Shown here: positions 2,688-30,319 of the stretch, one piece after another
Layout: each line of letters starts with the position of its first letter
Numbering within the stretch: the first letter of the stretch is position 1
DNA from: Escherichia phage AV102
Sequence record: OR352933.1
DNA length: 43,345 bases
Reading direction: 5' to 3' (one strand)
Notes under the pieces: generated by a model
Told to the model about the DNA's origin: nothing
Databases searched by the model: none
Seen by the model: the letters and a program-made list of their open reading frames with translations, nothing else
Program-made: the position numbers and the translations under genes

Positions 2688-3287
2688 TTATCTAGGTATA
2701 GCGGCAACTGCCGCTTGCGTTGATTTGAATTCATTCCCTATAGCCTTAGATTCCCACATACGGCGCTCCCATAGGCCCCAGCATACCTTATTACGCTGCC
2801 CGTTAATATACTGAGAGCAGTCAAAGGTCCAGCGGTTGCCACCCTTGTACACCCAACCGGTGCCTGGGGATTTCTGCTGGTACTTGCTAATGTAACGCCA
2901 GTTCAGCACAGCCTTTCCAGCCGCTGCGTAATCTAGGTTTTTGAGGTGCCGTTTCACAGCGCTGCCATTGAAGCCGGCTACGCCTACGTTATAGATGAAG
3001 TCTACAGACCCTATCAGAGCCACGTCAGAGAGCTGCATAGGAAGCCCGTCAAGAGCCTTAGCATGTTCCCCTGCTGATTCTATCAGTTGCTTCTGACAGT
3101 CGCTCAGCGTGGCTCTCTGACCCATTTTGACACCCTTTGTCTCCCCGTAGCAGATCGTAGGGATACCGGCACTGTCCTTGTAGGCTGTAAGACTCAAACC
3201 TTCATTGTGCTGGACTACCTCAGTAATAGCCCCGCCAAGCATAGTAGCCCCGGCGAGTGCAGCTATAACCCTAGTCCTTAAACTCAT
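2688..3287 (-). CDS. Endolysin, T4-lysozyme-like muramidase (GH24) with signal-arrest-release N-terminus
   Basis: Catalytic E-x8-D-x5-T context (NEGLSLTAYKDSAGIPTICYGET); Gly/Ala-rich weakly hydrophobic N-terminus RVIAALAGATMLGGAIT. Start moved to the internal Met at 3287 (RBS AAGGGGG upstream); the track ORF extends to 3311. Confidence 0.8.
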   Translation of the reverse strand: MSLRTRVIAALAGATMLGGAITEVVQHNEGLSLTAYKDSAGIPTICYGETKGVKMGQRATLSDCQKQLIESAGEHAKALDGLPMQLSDVALIGSVDFIYNVGVAGFNGSAVKRHLKNLDYAAAGKAVLNWRYISKYQQKSPGTGWVYKGGNRWTFDCSQYINGQRNKVCWGLWERRMWESKAIGNEFKSTQAAVAAIPR

Positions 3288-3522
3288 ATTTAATAGCCCC
3301 CTTACGTGCATGCTCCTCTAGGAGCTTGTATGTGCGCCATTTATAGTACGCATTCCACGCCAGGGTTAGCACTGCACACACCGTCGCAGTGATGAAGCTG
3401 ATAACACTCCAGTCCCAACTCCTTAGCTCTGCCAACCAACCTCCTGAGACTGTAGCACCAGTAACAGCTGCTCCTGCCCGGGTAGCGAGGTCTGCCCCAA
3501 CTACATCTCCCACTTTAATCAT
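3271..3522 (-). CDS. Holin, pinholin-like
   Basis: 83 aa; Gly/Ala-rich weak first TMD, strongly hydrophobic second TMD (WSVISFITATVCAVLTLAW), charged C-terminus; sits directly upstream of the SAR endolysin. Confidence 0.55.
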   Translation of the reverse strand: MIKVGDVVGADLATRAGAAVTGATVSGGWLAELRSWDWSVISFITATVCAVLTLAWNAYYKWRTYKLLEEHARKGAIKYEFKD

Positions 3523-3919
3523 CCTGCTGACCCTTCTTCCTAAATAGCTTACGAATCACCAGAATGGCCACTAGGAAGACCAAAGGGATGCTGGCCCCTG
3601 CTAATCCGGCGAGAATAAGACTATAACTATCGTTGTTAACCACCTGTAGGCGCTCTGCCTGGATTGTGCCTGTACTAATAGTCTGCACTTGCTTCTTGCT
3701 AGAAGTATCCAGTGTACCTACGTTAGAATCCTGTACATCGGTTTTGTTGGTGGTGCTGGAGTCCACCTTATTATTCAGCCCGAGCATCTGCTTAGTATTC
3801 TCAGCGCCAACCTGAGCAGATACTTCCGGCTTAGAACCAACTAAGCCGGTCAGTGCAGAGGTCGCTGAGCAACCAGTCAGAGTAACCGCGAGCAGTAACC
3901 CAGCGACCAGTTTGCGCAT
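3515..3919 (-). CDS. Candidate unimolecular spanin (lipoprotein with C-terminal transmembrane anchor)
   Basis: 134 aa; N-terminal signal with lipobox LTGC; Ser/Thr/Gln-rich periplasmic body; C-terminal TMD SLILAGLAGASIPLVFLVAILVI followed by RKLFRKKGQQDD; within the lysis cassette. Confidence 0.55.
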   Translation of the reverse strand: MRKLVAGLLLAVTLTGCSATSALTGLVGSKPEVSAQVGAENTKQMLGLNNKVDSSTTNKTDVQDSNVGTLDTSSKKQVQTISTGTIQAERLQVVNNDSYSLILAGLAGASIPLVFLVAILVIRKLFRKKGQQDD

Positions 3920-26948: not shown

Positions 26949-27101
26949 CTGGAGCCTCCTCGAACCACTTTGACGGGTACATACCTATATAACGCCCGCC
27001 CCGTATGTGCACATACGCATCTATGTCCGCCATGGAATCCACATAATAAACACTACCAAGTTCTAGGACCTTTTCGGAATCTGCTCGTATGCACCGAACT
27101 C

Positions 27102-27302
27102 TTACCATAACTGAATCTCCGCTACGCTATCCAAGTCAGCTTGCTCGTGAATGATAGAATCCAGATGCTCAACTGTTCTTCGATGAGTTTTGGGTGCTCG
27201 TTCACGCAACGCATCCAGAATAGTTTCAAGTTCATCATGTTTCCCCTCATAGTATAACTCAATCGCCCGCAGGCTCATTTCCTTCGCAGACATCTTCGCC
27301 AT
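27102..27302 (-). CDS. Hypothetical small protein, overlaps the 3' end of the exonuclease gene
   Basis: Probable start MAKMSAKEM at 27302; the track extends to 27371. Overlaps the exonuclease ORF by about 44 nt in another frame. Confidence 0.4.
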   Translation of the reverse strand: MAKMSAKEMSLRAIELYYEGKHDELETILDALRERAPKTHRRTVEHLDSIIHEQADLDSVAEIQLW

Positions 27303-28227
27303 TGTCTGGGTGCTCCTGTATCCACTGTATGTGCTGTTTATGGTACTCGTGCAGCGAATGCACCCAGTCACGTAGACTGGGAGTAGTCAACAGTGACATC
27401 AGATACTGATAGGCAGAATCTGATTGGGAGCGTCTCAGCCACAGGCATTCTGCCTCTGCGAGTACGTCTTGGTTGTTTCTAGCATAAGCCGCTACAACGA
27501 ACTCTGCGGCGTCTTGCTCTGAGGTAATAGGGTAGATAGCATCAAAGGCCGTTCGCTTGCCACAGGGCTTCCCATCAAGCAACGTGATGCCTTTGACGTT
27601 ATCTGCGTCGTCTCCTGCTAGCATCTGCCACCAGAAGAACTTCAACCCGTGTGCTCGTACAGGCATAGCCTGGGTGTCATCCCACTTAATCCATCCGAAG
27701 GGATCCTCCAGTGCAGGCCACACTGTACCGGTTGAGATATCAAACCGGGCCATAGGGCTGAGCCAGGAGTCCTTGTCCTGTGACATTAGTATACCGCGCT
27801 CACCGAAAGCGTATGAGTCCATTATGAATAGATCATCCGCCTCGAAGAAGTCGCTACTAACTACTTGGATACCTTGCTCAGAATACTGGTCCGGATTATC
27901 AATCAGGTGCCGCTTCAAAGGGGCCTTCAGTGGTAGCTCCTGCCGGTTAGCTCGCTGCCCCTGGTACGGCTTAGCTGTGGGTAGGTGCCAACGCAGACAC
28001 TTAGCACAACCAGCAGGAGTCAGATACGCCACTGCTTCCGAGCAGCCCACCAAGAACATGTCCTCAAGCACTAGCTGATAGAAGCGACGTATCGCCGTAT
28101 CCAAACGTTTCACTGTAGCGGCGGCTTTGTACACGCAAAAATCTGCGTCATATAGCAGAATCTTCCCAGAGTTCTGCGGGGCTAGCTGCTCCCCGAGCTG
28201 GGACAAGTCAACCCCGTTGATAATCAT
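27259..28227 (-). CDS. 5'-3' exonuclease (T7 gp6-like, FEN family)
   Basis: 322 aa; N-terminal ILLYDADFCVYKAA resembles the T7 gene 6 exonuclease N-terminus with acidic metal ligands. Confidence 0.75.
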   Translation of the reverse strand: MIINGVDLSQLGEQLAPQNSGKILLYDADFCVYKAAATVKRLDTAIRRFYQLVLEDMFLVGCSEAVAYLTPAGCAKCLRWHLPTAKPYQGQRANRQELPLKAPLKRHLIDNPDQYSEQGIQVVSSDFFEADDLFIMDSYAFGERGILMSQDKDSWLSPMARFDISTGTVWPALEDPFGWIKWDDTQAMPVRAHGLKFFWWQMLAGDDADNVKGITLLDGKPCGKRTAFDAIYPITSEQDAAEFVVAAYARNNQDVLAEAECLWLRRSQSDSAYQYLMSLLTTPSLRDWVHSLHEYHKQHIQWIQEHPDNGEDVCEGNEPAGD

Positions 28228-28385
28228 TAGCGCCCCGTAATATCGCGGGCCTTCTTGTCGGCCCAGTTAACCCAACGCTCCGCCCACTTCGCCTTGCTGA
28301 GCTTATCGCCCAGGTAGCAGAGTCCCGCTAGGGGGATTAGTGGGAGAATCAAAGCTACGTAAATTGCACGAGATACGTAAAGCAT
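28227..28385 (-). CDS. Small hydrophobic protein (52 aa), not in the ORF track
   Basis: My translation: MLYVSRAIYVALILPLIPLAGLCYLGDKLSKAKWAERWVNWADKKARDITGR; stop overlaps the exonuclease ATG (TAATG). Confidence 0.4.
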   Translation of the reverse strand: MLYVSRAIYVALILPLIPLAGLCYLGDKLSKAKWAERWVNWADKKARDITGR

Positions 28386-28387
28386 TC

Positions 28388-28552
28388 TTAAATCTCCAAA
28401 TTAGCTGTGAAAGCGCGTATTGCACGAGTCAGCACAGACACGCCCTTTGCGCCCCCTGCCACACTAAGCGCCAGCGCCATTAACGTCAAACCAATTGCAA
28501 GTAACGCTAGTGCGGGAAATAGGAATATGTAGGATATAACTTTACGCATCAT
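28388..28552 (-). CDS. Small membrane protein (54 aa), not in the ORF track
   Basis: My translation: MMRKVISYIFLFPALALLAIGLTLMALALSVAGGAKGVSVLTRAIRAFTANLEI; start overlaps the upstream stop (ATGA). Confidence 0.4.
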   Translation of the reverse strand: MMRKVISYIFLFPALALLAIGLTLMALALSVAGGAKGVSVLTRAIRAFTANLEI

Positions 28553-28926
28553 TTACCCTCTAGTTCAGACAGCACCAGCACGGTACCAAGCATGTCCCCG
28601 ATTACTTCCGGCGTACGCAGGCTCTGGTCTACATCGTAGATACAGGAACCAATCTCCGCCAACCCGATACTGAGAGTACCTACGATGCGGATAACTGCCA
28701 GATCGTCCCCCTTCAACTTATCGGCATGTGCCGCCAGGTCGTTGTGTTCCTTGAAGGCGGTAGCGGCCAGCTCCAGATCCATGCCGTATAGGGCAGCCAG
28801 TTTATCCAGCGCATCATAGAGTGTGCCCAACCCATCATCTACAACACAATCATGCGCCGAGTCGTATACCACTGAAGCTACAGCTTTAGCCAGATTCTTG
28901 TATGCATCTAACACTTTATCCATCAA
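28549..28926 (-). CDS. Hypothetical protein (125 aa, acidic)
   Basis: ORF in the tightly packed middle operon. Confidence 0.5.
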   Translation of the reverse strand: MMDKVLDAYKNLAKAVASVVYDSAHDCVVDDGLGTLYDALDKLAALYGMDLELAATAFKEHNDLAAHADKLKGDDLAVIRIVGTLSIGLAEIGSCIYDVDQSLRTPEVIGDMLGTVLVLSELEGK

Positions 28927-29181
28927 TCACACCCCCAGAAAGTTTACTACTTCATCACGCTTAGCGCGCAGTTTATCAGCCTGTTCAGCGCACTTAGCCG
29001 CTTCAGCTTTGCTGTGTTTGGAGGCTTCTACTCGTGCCTCGGATTGTGCCGCCAGGCGCACTGCATCATCTGCAAACTTAATCGACAACTGCTCATTCAG
29101 TTGTGCCTTAGCGTCAGCACGTTTAGCTTCTGCCGTATAAGCTGCACTTAGGAGTTTGATGAGAATCTTGATGATATTCAT
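28927..29181 (-). CDS. Hypothetical coiled-coil protein (84 aa)
   Basis: Ala/Lys/Glu-rich helical heptad-like sequence. Confidence 0.45.
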   Translation of the reverse strand: MNIIKILIKLLSAAYTAEAKRADAKAQLNEQLSIKFADDAVRLAAQSEARVEASKHSKAEAAKCAEQADKLRAKRDEVVNFLGV

Positions 29182-29233
29182 AGGCTTCCTCTAAGGCCCC
29201 AGGCGGGGCCATATTAGTTAATAATAGGGTTGC

Positions 29234-30103
29234 TTAGGCTTGCGGTGCAGCAGGCGCTGCGGGGGCTGCAGGAGCCACTGGCGCTGCCGGTGCTACAGGG
29301 GCACTTGGTGCTGCTGGTGCTACTGGAGCACTCGGTGCCGCTGGTGCAGTGGGCGCAGCCGGGGCTGCGGGGGCTGCAGGAGCAGCCGGGGCCTGCATAG
29401 ACTGAGGACTCGGAACCGAACCAGCATTCAGCATAATATCCAACGCACTGCCTGGGAAGTCTACGGCCTTGTACATGTCCTCCTGAATCCAGTTTTTACT
29501 CTTACCATCATCCTTGGTACCTTCGATATACAAGCTATCCCAGGTTTCTTTGGTAGGGTTGTTCCACAAGAACAGCTTAATCTCGGAAGCATCCAGCTCA
29601 GGCATTTTAATCGGCTCACCGGTATTCGGGTCGAACTTCGGAATCGGACGGATTGCCGCGAGGTCTACAATGTTGGACTTCTTACCCGCTGCGCTGGTGT
29701 GCTCATCCACCTGGAATACAAATGCTTGTCCCAGTCGCTGTGCAGCATGCTTAATACTGCCATCGTAGTTGAGCTTGTCGAAGAACTTCTTGAAGCCCGC
29801 ACGCTCAAAGTTGCTAATAGTCATCGGATACGGACGGATACGCTTCACCTCACCGTTCGGGCCGTACACCACAATCCCGATGCGAACGTTCGCCGCGGCA
29901 GGCTTACCGGTAGGCTTACCACCTTTAGTCGGCAGGCGCTTACCAATTTCCACGTACTCAGTAAAGTAACCGTAGTACTCACCCTTCGGCAGAAGCACAT
30001 CCTCATACGCACCACCCTGGGCGGTTTCGGTCATATCAACTTCTTGGGTTTCAATCGCAGCAGCAACCAGGGAGTTCAGAGTGTCCAGTGCATTCATAGT
30101 CAT
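29234..30103 (-). CDS. Hypothetical protein with C-terminal Pro-Ala repeat tail; possibly a DNA-binding or SSB-like protein by position
   Basis: 289 aa; last ~50 residues are PAAPAAPAAP-type repeats ending in PQA and stop; position between replication genes. Confidence 0.55.
   Translation of the reverse strand: MTMNALDTLNSLVAAAIETQEVDMTETAQGGAYEDVLLPKGEYYGYFTEYVEIGKRLPTKGGKPTGKPAAANVRIGIVVYGPNGEVKRIRPYPMTISNFERAGFKKFFDKLNYDGSIKHAAQRLGQAFVFQVDEHTSAAGKKSNIVDLAAIRPIPKFDPNTGEPIKMPELDASEIKLFLWNNPTKETWDSLYIEGTKDDGKSKNWIQEDMYKAVDFPGSALDIMLNAGSVPSPQSMQAPAAPAAPAAPAAPTAPAAPSAPVAPAAPSAPVAPAAPVAPAAPAAPAAPQA
29237..29395 (-). repeat. Tandem GCN/CCN-rich nucleotide repeats encoding the Pro-Ala tail
   Basis: Repeated gctgcaggagc / ggtgctgctggtgc units on the plus strand within the CDS 3' end. 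Confidence 0.7.
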
Positions 30104-30154: not shown

Positions 30155-30319
30155 TTAGCGTTTTGAAGCGACGGCGGCGGCAACGAACACCAGGATTATA
30201 GCTAGCGCAGCAGGACCCCAGAACGGGAGCAGCACCCACAGCCAAGACCAGGCGATAACTCCGGTCAGTTTCAGGGTTACGAAGATAAGGCCTAGTACAG
30301 AACAGATTCCCATTTTCAT
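30155..30319 (-). CDS. Small two-TMD membrane protein (54 aa), not in the ORF track
   Basis: My translation: MKMGICSVLGLIFVTLKLTGVIAWSWLWVLLPFWGPAALAIILVFVAAAVASKR; AGGAG 6 nt upstream. Confidence 0.45.
   Translation of the reverse strand: MKMGICSVLGLIFVTLKLTGVIAWSWLWVLLPFWGPAALAIILVFVAAAVASKR

Follow-up and report, generated by a model that had tools for sequence, protein, structure and literature searches.

Escherichia phage AV102 almost certainly carries two real protein-coding genes, here called A54 and B52, in the interval between the gene of a 125-aa protein and the 5'-3' exonuclease gene. The best explanation as a whole, to which we give about an even chance, is that these two genuine genes encode proteins that would act as modulators at the host inner membrane. 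In practical terms, the analysis corrected the start and the junctions of the genes and proved selection at the protein level; moreover, B52 was found genus-wide with two swapped alleles, while A54 was found to be optional. Of some, albeit mild, interest is the occurrence of B52 throughout the genus as two deeply divergent alleles that are swapped.

Phage and locus

AV102 has been described as a phage of 43,345 bp with a G+C content of 51.4%, belonging to the genus Drulisvirus, with Minorna as its nearest relative (PMC10844046). The window, i.e., the whole stretch of 43,345 nucleotides that was analysed, had a G+C content of 0.514, was assigned to Drulisvirus (KP34-like), and carried all its genes on the minus strand; it represents AV102 (OR352933) in reverse orientation. 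A megablast search with positions 27200-29300 matched 252 phage records, nearly all of them Klebsiella or Escherichia Drulisvirus (KP34-like; Autographiviridae, Slopekvirinae), with Minorna, KPV811, and EC22.5-2 as the top relatives at approximately 95% identity. The two genes and their neighbors are as follows.

28549..28926, minus strand: upstream neighbor, 125-aa ORF of PHROG 6607 (a family without assigned function), whose stop overlaps the A54 start
28388..28552, minus strand: gene A54, 54 codons from the first ATG, with the conserved start at the second ATG (28549), giving 53 aa (WPK32998.1); PHROG 17815; accessory cassette in sequence comparisons
28227..28385, minus strand: gene B52, 52 aa; PHROG 7652; near-universal in Drulisvirus, where the exonuclease or an HNH insert always follows it directly
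27259..28227, minus strand: downstream neighbor, 322-aa 5'-3' exonuclease; PHROG 107

A previous sequence-only reading had placed two back-to-back ORFs of 54 and 52 codons in this gap, and both are indeed present there on the minus strand. A54 (165 nt), a spacer (2 nt), and B52 (159 nt) tile the gap from the 125-aa ORF to the exonuclease exactly, for a total of 326 nt and not the 320 nt first given. Both ORFs are shorter than 60 aa and thus fall under the cutoff of the ORF track used at that time, as had been stated. Both belong to the middle block of DNA-metabolism genes, and the phage RNA polymerase gene lies downstream of them.

Junctions, start sites and ribosome-binding sites

Each start had been described as overlapping the upstream stop, as ATGA and TAATG, respectively. 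The first overlap was found as described, with the stop of the 125-aa ORF and the first ATG of A54 forming ATGA. The TAATG, located at 28225-28229, instead joins the B52 stop to the exonuclease start; the A54 stop and the B52 start do not overlap, being separated by a 2-nt spacer (sequence TAAGAATG). Three putative ribosome-binding sites accompany these junctions.

28556..28560, minus strand: Shine-Dalgarno GAGGG for A54, inside the terminal codons of the 125-aa ORF and spaced 6 nt from the second ATG but only 3 nt from the first
28394..28397, minus strand: Shine-Dalgarno GGAG for B52, within the last A54 codons (..L-E-I*), 8 nt before the B52 ATG
28233..28236, minus strand: GGGG (in ACGGGG), candidate ribosome-binding site of the exonuclease, in B52 codons T50-G51; this DNA does not vary in either B allele

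Most relatives open A54 with MRK, i.e., with a single methionine, and all of these have TAATG or TGATG at the junction. Based on these MRK starts and on the 6-nt rather than 3-nt spacing from GAGGG, the true start of A54 is probably the second ATG, at 28549, yielding a protein of 53 aa; the GenBank annotation of A54 likewise corresponds to the 53-aa form. The ACGGGG in the 3' end of B52 is probably the ribosome-binding site of the exonuclease. Because this DNA is invariant just before the exonuclease ATG in both alleles, the conservation of T50-G51 in B52 probably reflects, in part, the embedded site and not protein function.

The Shine-Dalgarno sites and the stop/start junctions of A54 and B52 were conserved across relatives. 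Stop/start overlaps, together with the location of each Shine-Dalgarno site within the last codons of the preceding gene, suggest that A54, B52, and their neighbors are translationally coupled, including the exonuclease to B52. The cassette ends share the motif (C/T)TGGAG..TAA, which encodes "LE(I)*" and doubles as the Shine-Dalgarno site of the next gene; this motif might plausibly provide the short homology for cassette exchange. With regard to a promoter or terminator specific to A54 and B52, promoter- and terminator-like sites were not more common than in shuffled sequence, and a search for RNA elements in positions 27000-30000 returned zero Rfam matches.

Evidence for protein coding

We assembled 69 loci from IMG/VR, GenBank phages, and metagenome contigs, including three sister-genus comparators and two E. 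coli yfbV loci; gene content and selection were analysed on 62 of these (L001-L062) plus the AV102 window. The annotated frame was free of stops in all distinct DNA variants (15/15 for A54 and 40/40 for B52), so that the conservation in related phages proposed by the sequence-only reading as a check was observed for both genes. Antisense and alternative-frame genes were rejected: no other frame, on either strand, was open in all variants, with stops appearing in relatives.

Substitution patterns indicated purifying selection, with pooled pN/pS values of 0.29 for A54 and 0.12 for B52. Many B52 pairs differed from AV102 by 11-17 synonymous and 0 nonsynonymous changes, while A54 pairs exhibited 19-20 synonymous versus 5-8 nonsynonymous differences. 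In binomial tests against neutrality, each on one pair, the departure was pronounced for both B52 (17 synonymous, 0 nonsynonymous; P = 3e-11) and A54 (20 synonymous, 5 nonsynonymous; P = 7e-8). The exclusive conservation of the frame, the purifying selection, and the Shine-Dalgarno sites are the grounds on which we consider A54 and B52 to be real genes.

The opposite explanation, that they are chance frames or translational-coupling spacers without protein function, could draw on the shortness of the ORFs, the presence of the exonuclease ribosome-binding site in the 3' end of B52, and the C-terminus of A54, which is frameshifted in AttikonH1N2. It is nevertheless extremely improbable, being refuted by the strong purifying selection on amino acids and the exclusive frame conservation; moreover, members of the B family at 31-51% identity keep their length and architecture, and A54 is conserved down to 53-55% identity.

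Annotation and protein families

The two genes had been presented as unannotated, an impression that arose from the ORF track of at least 60 aa on which the first reading relied. This is incorrect. An exact-sequence look-up showed that the 53-aa form of A54 is WPK32998.1, a "hypothetical protein" in the AV102 record itself, and other public records carry annotations of both genes. The exact B52 sequence was present on 335 contigs under "hypothetical protein" names, and the same label was found on A54 and B52 in dozens of relatives. Homologs of the A54/B52 pair were annotated as hypothetical in Minorna, KPV811, K39PH122C2, K66PH128C1, phiBO1E, RCIP0036, VLC1, JKT5, and AttikonH1N2; in the last of these, the A54 homolog was also labelled 'signal peptide containing protein' and the B52 homolog 'transmembrane domain containing protein'. 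Papers on phage characterization go no further than mentioning hypothetical proteins that have a signal peptide or a transmembrane helix (PMC10194101).

Both proteins are plain, full-length members of PHROG families that have no functional annotation: A54 matched PHROG 17815 (E = 1.2e-31, residues 2-54 on profile positions 1-53 of 53) and B52 matched PHROG 7652 (E = 3.2e-33, residues 1-52 on profile positions 2-53 of 53). A54 and B52 are, therefore, already known as hypothetical proteins in existing families.

Predicted structure and membrane character

From sequence, alignments, and AF2 models, four helical segments were delineated in the two proteins, each of which combines a hydrophobic helix at the N-terminus with a basic amphipathic one at the C-terminus.

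28457..28540, minus strand: A54 residues 5-32, long hydrophobic helix, potential transmembrane helix or signal anchor (Kyte-Doolittle maximum 2.51; AF2; alignments)
28394..28450, minus strand: A54 residues 35-53, basic amphipathic C-terminal helix (K36, R43, R46; L41, F48, and L52 conserved)
28308..28367, minus strand: B52 residues 7-26, hydrophobic helix (Kyte-Doolittle maximum 2.22), kinked at the invariant P15 and the near-invariant P18; C23 is common, not invariant
28236..28289, minus strand: B52 residues 33-50, Trp- and Lys-rich C-terminal helix (W41 and A42 invariant; W38 at least 90% conserved)

Single-pass membrane proteins were defined here by a hydrophobic helix of at least 19 residues with a mean Kyte-Doolittle value above 1.6. 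Such a helix was found in both proteins, with best 19-residue windows of 2.51 in A54 and 2.22 in B52, so that the hydrophobic helices noticed at first reading were recovered. The AF2 models were all-helical, with helices at residues 2-33 and 35-53 in A54 (mean pLDDT 83) and at residues 2-13, 16-31, and 33-50 in B52 (pLDDT 89). Given these predictions, A54 and B52 are very likely located in a membrane. The initial description of the ORFs as small membrane protein genes is thus upheld: the frames are conserved and under purifying selection, Shine-Dalgarno sites precede both starts, and the products are hydrophobic and have confident all-helical models. Since each hydrophobic helix is flanked by basic residues on both sides, charge gave no clear topology. 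The helical periodicity of conservation was marginal (P = 0.07 and 0.03 for A54; P = 0.13 and 0.53 for B52), and a binding face derived from it was rejected.

A54 begins with MMRK, followed by a hydrophobic stretch of approximately 28 residues, a near-invariant G33-G34 hinge, and the basic amphipathic helix; it contains no cysteine. Within the hydrophobic helix, P13, L18, and L29 are invariant, and A14, L15, L22, and A28 are at least 90% conserved. This layout has features of a signal peptide, and A54 might conceivably be a secretory precursor that is cleaved after a Sec signal, releasing a basic peptide of approximately 20 aa to the periplasm. The invariant R-K of the n-region, the helix break at G33-G34, the small residues at candidate -3/-1 positions (A-L-S|V, G-G-A|K), and the signal-peptide label of the AttikonH1N2 homolog would all agree with cleavage. 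However, the hydrophobic stretch, at approximately 28 residues, is about twice as long as a typical Sec h-region (approximately 10-15 residues), which favors an uncleaved anchor; we consider secretion of a released peptide quite unlikely.

By sequence inspection, approximately 45% of the A54 helix consists of Ala, Gly, Ser, or Thr. A signal-arrest-release (SAR)-like helix rich in small residues, together with the fact that both proteins are small and pair a single hydrophobic helix with a charged tail, would be compatible with holin- or antiholin-like factors that set the timing of lysis. This role is very unlikely for either protein: AV102 has a complete lysis cassette (signal/SAR endolysin, 83-aa holin, and lipobox spanin) at 2688-3919, in the late region and approximately 24 kb from A54 and B52, whereas the two genes lie in the DNA-metabolism block, and neither matched a holin family in the PHROGs or Pfam searches.

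The C-terminal tail of B52 is strongly basic, with 9 K+R versus 4 D+E. A lipoprotein nature of B52, as in receptor blockers of the Llp/Cor type, was considered and rejected, since the lipobox pattern L-[AS]-[GA]-C is not matched by its L-A-G-L-C, which has Leu at position -1, and some homologs have V, S, F, or Y in place of the cysteine.

Distribution and evolution of the two families

An exonuclease at least 80% identical to that of AV102 was found in 248 phage records. B allele 1 (the B52 type) was present in 164 phage records and allele 2 in 83, for a total of about 247 of 248 Drulisvirus records; as judged from these sequences, the B family is essentially universal in the genus. Allele 2 (MRNFFAK...) is only 31-37% identical to allele 1, but has the same length, the same P..P and W..WA motifs, and belongs to the same PHROG. 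In phiHAO78-1, the exonuclease is 98.8% identical to that of AV102, yet the B gene is allele 2; similarly, a third B variant, with 51% identity, occupies the same position in a metagenomic Drulisvirus whose exonuclease is 90% identical. From these cases, sequence comparison indicates that B alleles are exchanged between near-identical backbones, each allele being tightly constrained.

A54 was found in 82 records (approximately 33%) and was missing from Minorna and KPV811, the closest relatives of AV102. Its G+C content was 0.47 (GC3 0.45), versus 0.51 for the genome. On the basis of the compared loci, A54 is an optional, low-GC cassette in an insertion hotspot for small genes. The order at this variable site is the 125-aa ORF, optional A54, an optional 65-aa ORF (PHROG 7840), B52, an optional HNH gene, and the exonuclease.

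All database homologs of A54 and B52 were located on contigs of approximately 43-45 kb or fragments thereof. When 1.84 billion representative proteins were searched exhaustively with a profile of the B family, eight matches were returned, corresponding to five family members (51-55 aa), two fusion ORFs (P0130 and P0131), and one weak match, which was a repeat match in a 220-aa protein. P0131 was rejected as a genuine fusion and is read as an assembly chimera; it lies on a 2.5-kb metagenome contig of 1.4x coverage, beside a Firmicute-type gene. In the sister genera Phimunavirus, Phikmvvirus, and Friunavirus, no annotated small ORF was found directly upstream of the exonuclease, from which it follows that the replication module does not, in general, require B52.

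These patterns bear on two further explanations. The first is that A54 and B52 are anti-defense or accessory factors directed against membrane-associated host immunity. Such a role is suggested by their position in a hypervariable hotspot of accessory genes, where the presence of A54 and the 65-aa ORF varies, by the exchange among near-identical backbones of two divergent B alleles that are constrained within each type, and by the atypical G+C content of A54. However, neither protein resembles any described protein in PHROGs, Pfam, NCBIfam, or PADLOC, and B52 is universal rather than sporadic, which leaves this explanation with a small but real chance.

The second is that B52, and possibly A54, tethers or organizes the replication-recombination machinery at the inner membrane, with the basic, Trp-rich tail binding DNA or the exonuclease by analogy with phi29 p16.7. 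B52 is near-universal in the genus and lies in the DNA-metabolism block directly before the exonuclease, to which it is joined by the TAATG or TGATG overlap and the embedded ribosome-binding site; its tail is also strongly basic. Against this, a tail of approximately 26 aa leaves too little room for a DNA-binding domain like that of p16.7, some genomes have an HNH gene between B52 and the exonuclease, and related genera with a homologous exonuclease do not have such a gene. Moreover, the exonuclease stays 90-99% identical while the B alleles drop to 31-51%, which argues against a co-evolving partner. We regard a tethering function as unlikely.

Searches for function

A homolog of known function was not found for A54 or B52 in Pfam, NCBIfam, PADLOC, or PHROGs. 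Searches against PDB sequence profiles returned only chance matches (E > 0.1), and a BFVD fold search gave 0 matches for B52 and none below E = 1 for A54. With regard to exclusion proteins of the T4 Imm/Sp type, no Pfam, NCBIfam, or PADLOC family scored above threshold. In the literature, we found no Drulisvirus transcriptome, ribosome-profiling, or infected-cell proteome dataset, nor any functional study of these genes.

The identification of B52 as YfbV/DUF412 (PF04217) was rejected, with a score of 13.3 bits (E = 0.085) versus a Pfam cut-off of 23.6 bits; an hhalign comparison with E. coli YfbV covered only 16 columns, with a probability of 2.8%. The resemblance to YfbV appeared in two libraries, and four members of the B family reached E = 4e-4 against DUF412. 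E. coli YfbV is an inner-membrane protein that shares with B52 a Y..(.)P.I....LCW stretch, the likeness being limited to one transmembrane helix. Some family members also weakly matched DUF7535, GvpG, and PufQ, in what look like composition effects.

Proposed role and comparison with known systems

In the inner-membrane modulator role that we favor, A54 and B52 would enter the host inner membrane in mid-infection and serve there as small modulators by binding a membrane protein, either one belonging to the host or one from an incoming phage. The likeliest outcomes would be a block of superinfection or DNA entry, or the shutdown of a host envelope process, for example division or the synthesis of wall or capsule. 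The sequence-only reading had named superinfection exclusion and host membrane remodelling as what such proteins often do; a specific role in envelope modulation or exclusion is a possibility that we advance tentatively; roles in lysis and DNA metabolism are less likely. More speculatively, and with a correspondingly lower expectation, B52 may be a genus-defining membrane effector of Drulisvirus, i.e., an exclusion, host-takeover, or anti-defense factor of a new type directed against a variable component of the Klebsiella or E. coli envelope, with A54 as an optional partner or second effector. The signature of an arms race is read here from the divergent alleles (31-37% identity) that are swapped between backbones more than 95% identical, together with the near-absolute purifying selection within each. 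Since Drulisvirus phages are widely used as candidates for Klebsiella therapy, a universal membrane protein represents a modest target for tests.

Among the known systems with which these proteins can be compared, phi29 p16.7 is a membrane anchor of phage DNA replication, of approximately 130 aa, in which a coiled coil is combined with a dimeric DNA-binding domain. B52 resembles it in its N-terminal hydrophobic, putatively transmembrane helix followed by a basic part (cytoplasmic in p16.7) and in the location of its gene among replication genes. In contrast, the tail of B52 is a single helix of approximately 26 aa, without the coiled coil and the DNA-binding domain.

SPO1 gp56 is a small phage membrane protein that inhibits host division or wall synthesis. 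Similarly, phiNM1 Gp11 is reported to be a small phage membrane protein that inhibits host envelope synthesis (PMC11237401). Both of these differ from A54 and B52 in that they come from phages of Gram-positive hosts and are unrelated in sequence; the likeness is that all are small membrane proteins, predicted as such for A54 and B52, from early or middle regions, and Gp11 and gp56 act by binding host membrane proteins.

Finally, the lytic phage T4 encodes Imm and Sp, two small proteins of the inner membrane that bring about superinfection exclusion. At 83-97 aa, they are longer than A54 and B52 (52-54 aa), for which no sequence similarity to any Pfam family was detected. All four are alike in being small, in belonging to a virulent phage, and in being encoded outside the lysis cassette; the membrane anchoring of Imm and Sp and their production before the late genes are predicted for A54 and B52 as well.

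A third small membrane ORF in the gene block

Besides A54 and B52, the two small membrane protein genes, their gene block holds a third membrane ORF of fewer than 60 codons:

30155..30319, minus strand: 54-aa membrane ORF

Its product exhibited two hydrophobic segments (KD maximum of 2.37) and matched PHROG 1374 (E = 8e-20), a family of unknown function. In Minorna, a 159-nt gene is annotated at the equivalent position. This ORF would also have been missed with the 60-aa cut-off of the sequence-only reading.

Neighbouring genes and intergenic hairpin

29195..29210: perfect GC-rich hairpin, GGCCCC-N4-GGGGCC, in the 52-nt intergenic stretch that separates the 289-aa ORF from the 84-aa ORF
29234..30103, minus strand: 289-aa ORF, PHROG 862
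27102..27305, minus strand: gene following the exonuclease gene, 67 aa in relatives

The 289-aa ORF ends in a Pro/Ala-rich tail (APAAPAAP...) of about 50 aa. Among relatives it is named SSB, "large tegument protein" or "Fe-S oxidoreductase", and this disagreement between labels suggests annotation noise. The hairpin lies immediately upstream of the Shine-Dalgarno site of the 84-aa ORF. No T-run accompanies it on the coding strand, so the structure may serve in RNA processing or stability, or may terminate transcription weakly. The 67-aa gene overlaps the 3' end of the exonuclease gene (27259..28227, minus strand) by approximately 44-47 nt in a different frame, as is likewise annotated in Minorna and K39PH122C2.

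Variation among relatives around A54 and B52

In many relatives, a 65-aa soluble ORF (PHROG 7840; ...RWAAKPTRKQVKLAAKSVARLEI) sits between A54 and B52, for example in K39PH122C2 (L002:2689-2886), L004 and L053. It shares with A54 an identical ending, TGGAGATTTAA, and is missing from VLC1 and from AV102, between 28385 and 28388. The C-terminal third of the A54 homologue of AttikonH1N2 (L060:1501-1653) is frameshifted (…GGRKGCICAYSCNARFLR), reflecting either a sequencing error or accessory-gene decay.

Some relatives carry an extra gene between B52 and the exonuclease gene:

about +415 nt: L008, L009, L027, L029, L033, L034
about +490 nt: L051, L052

These relatives retain the stop codon of B52 as well as the probable exonuclease ribosome-binding site, the ACGGGG motif embedded in that gene, with the ATG of the insert replacing that of the exonuclease. 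An HNH endonuclease is annotated in this region of VLCpiA1k.

Two metagenomic ORFs from the B52-family profile search (P0130 and P0131; L063) consist of half a B52-type protein joined to unrelated sequence. P0131 lies on a 2.5-kb contig of 1.4x coverage, where it adjoins a ChW/polysaccharide-deacetylase gene, and is therefore probably a chimera created during assembly, not a genuine split gene.

Lysis cassette

2688..3919, minus strand: lysis cassette (endolysin, holin and lipobox protein)

The 207-aa endolysin has a signal/SAR-like helix at its N-terminus, and the holin is 83 aa long. The 134-aa protein, which combines a lipobox (LTGC) with a hydrophobic helix at its C-terminus, resembles a unimolecular spanin.
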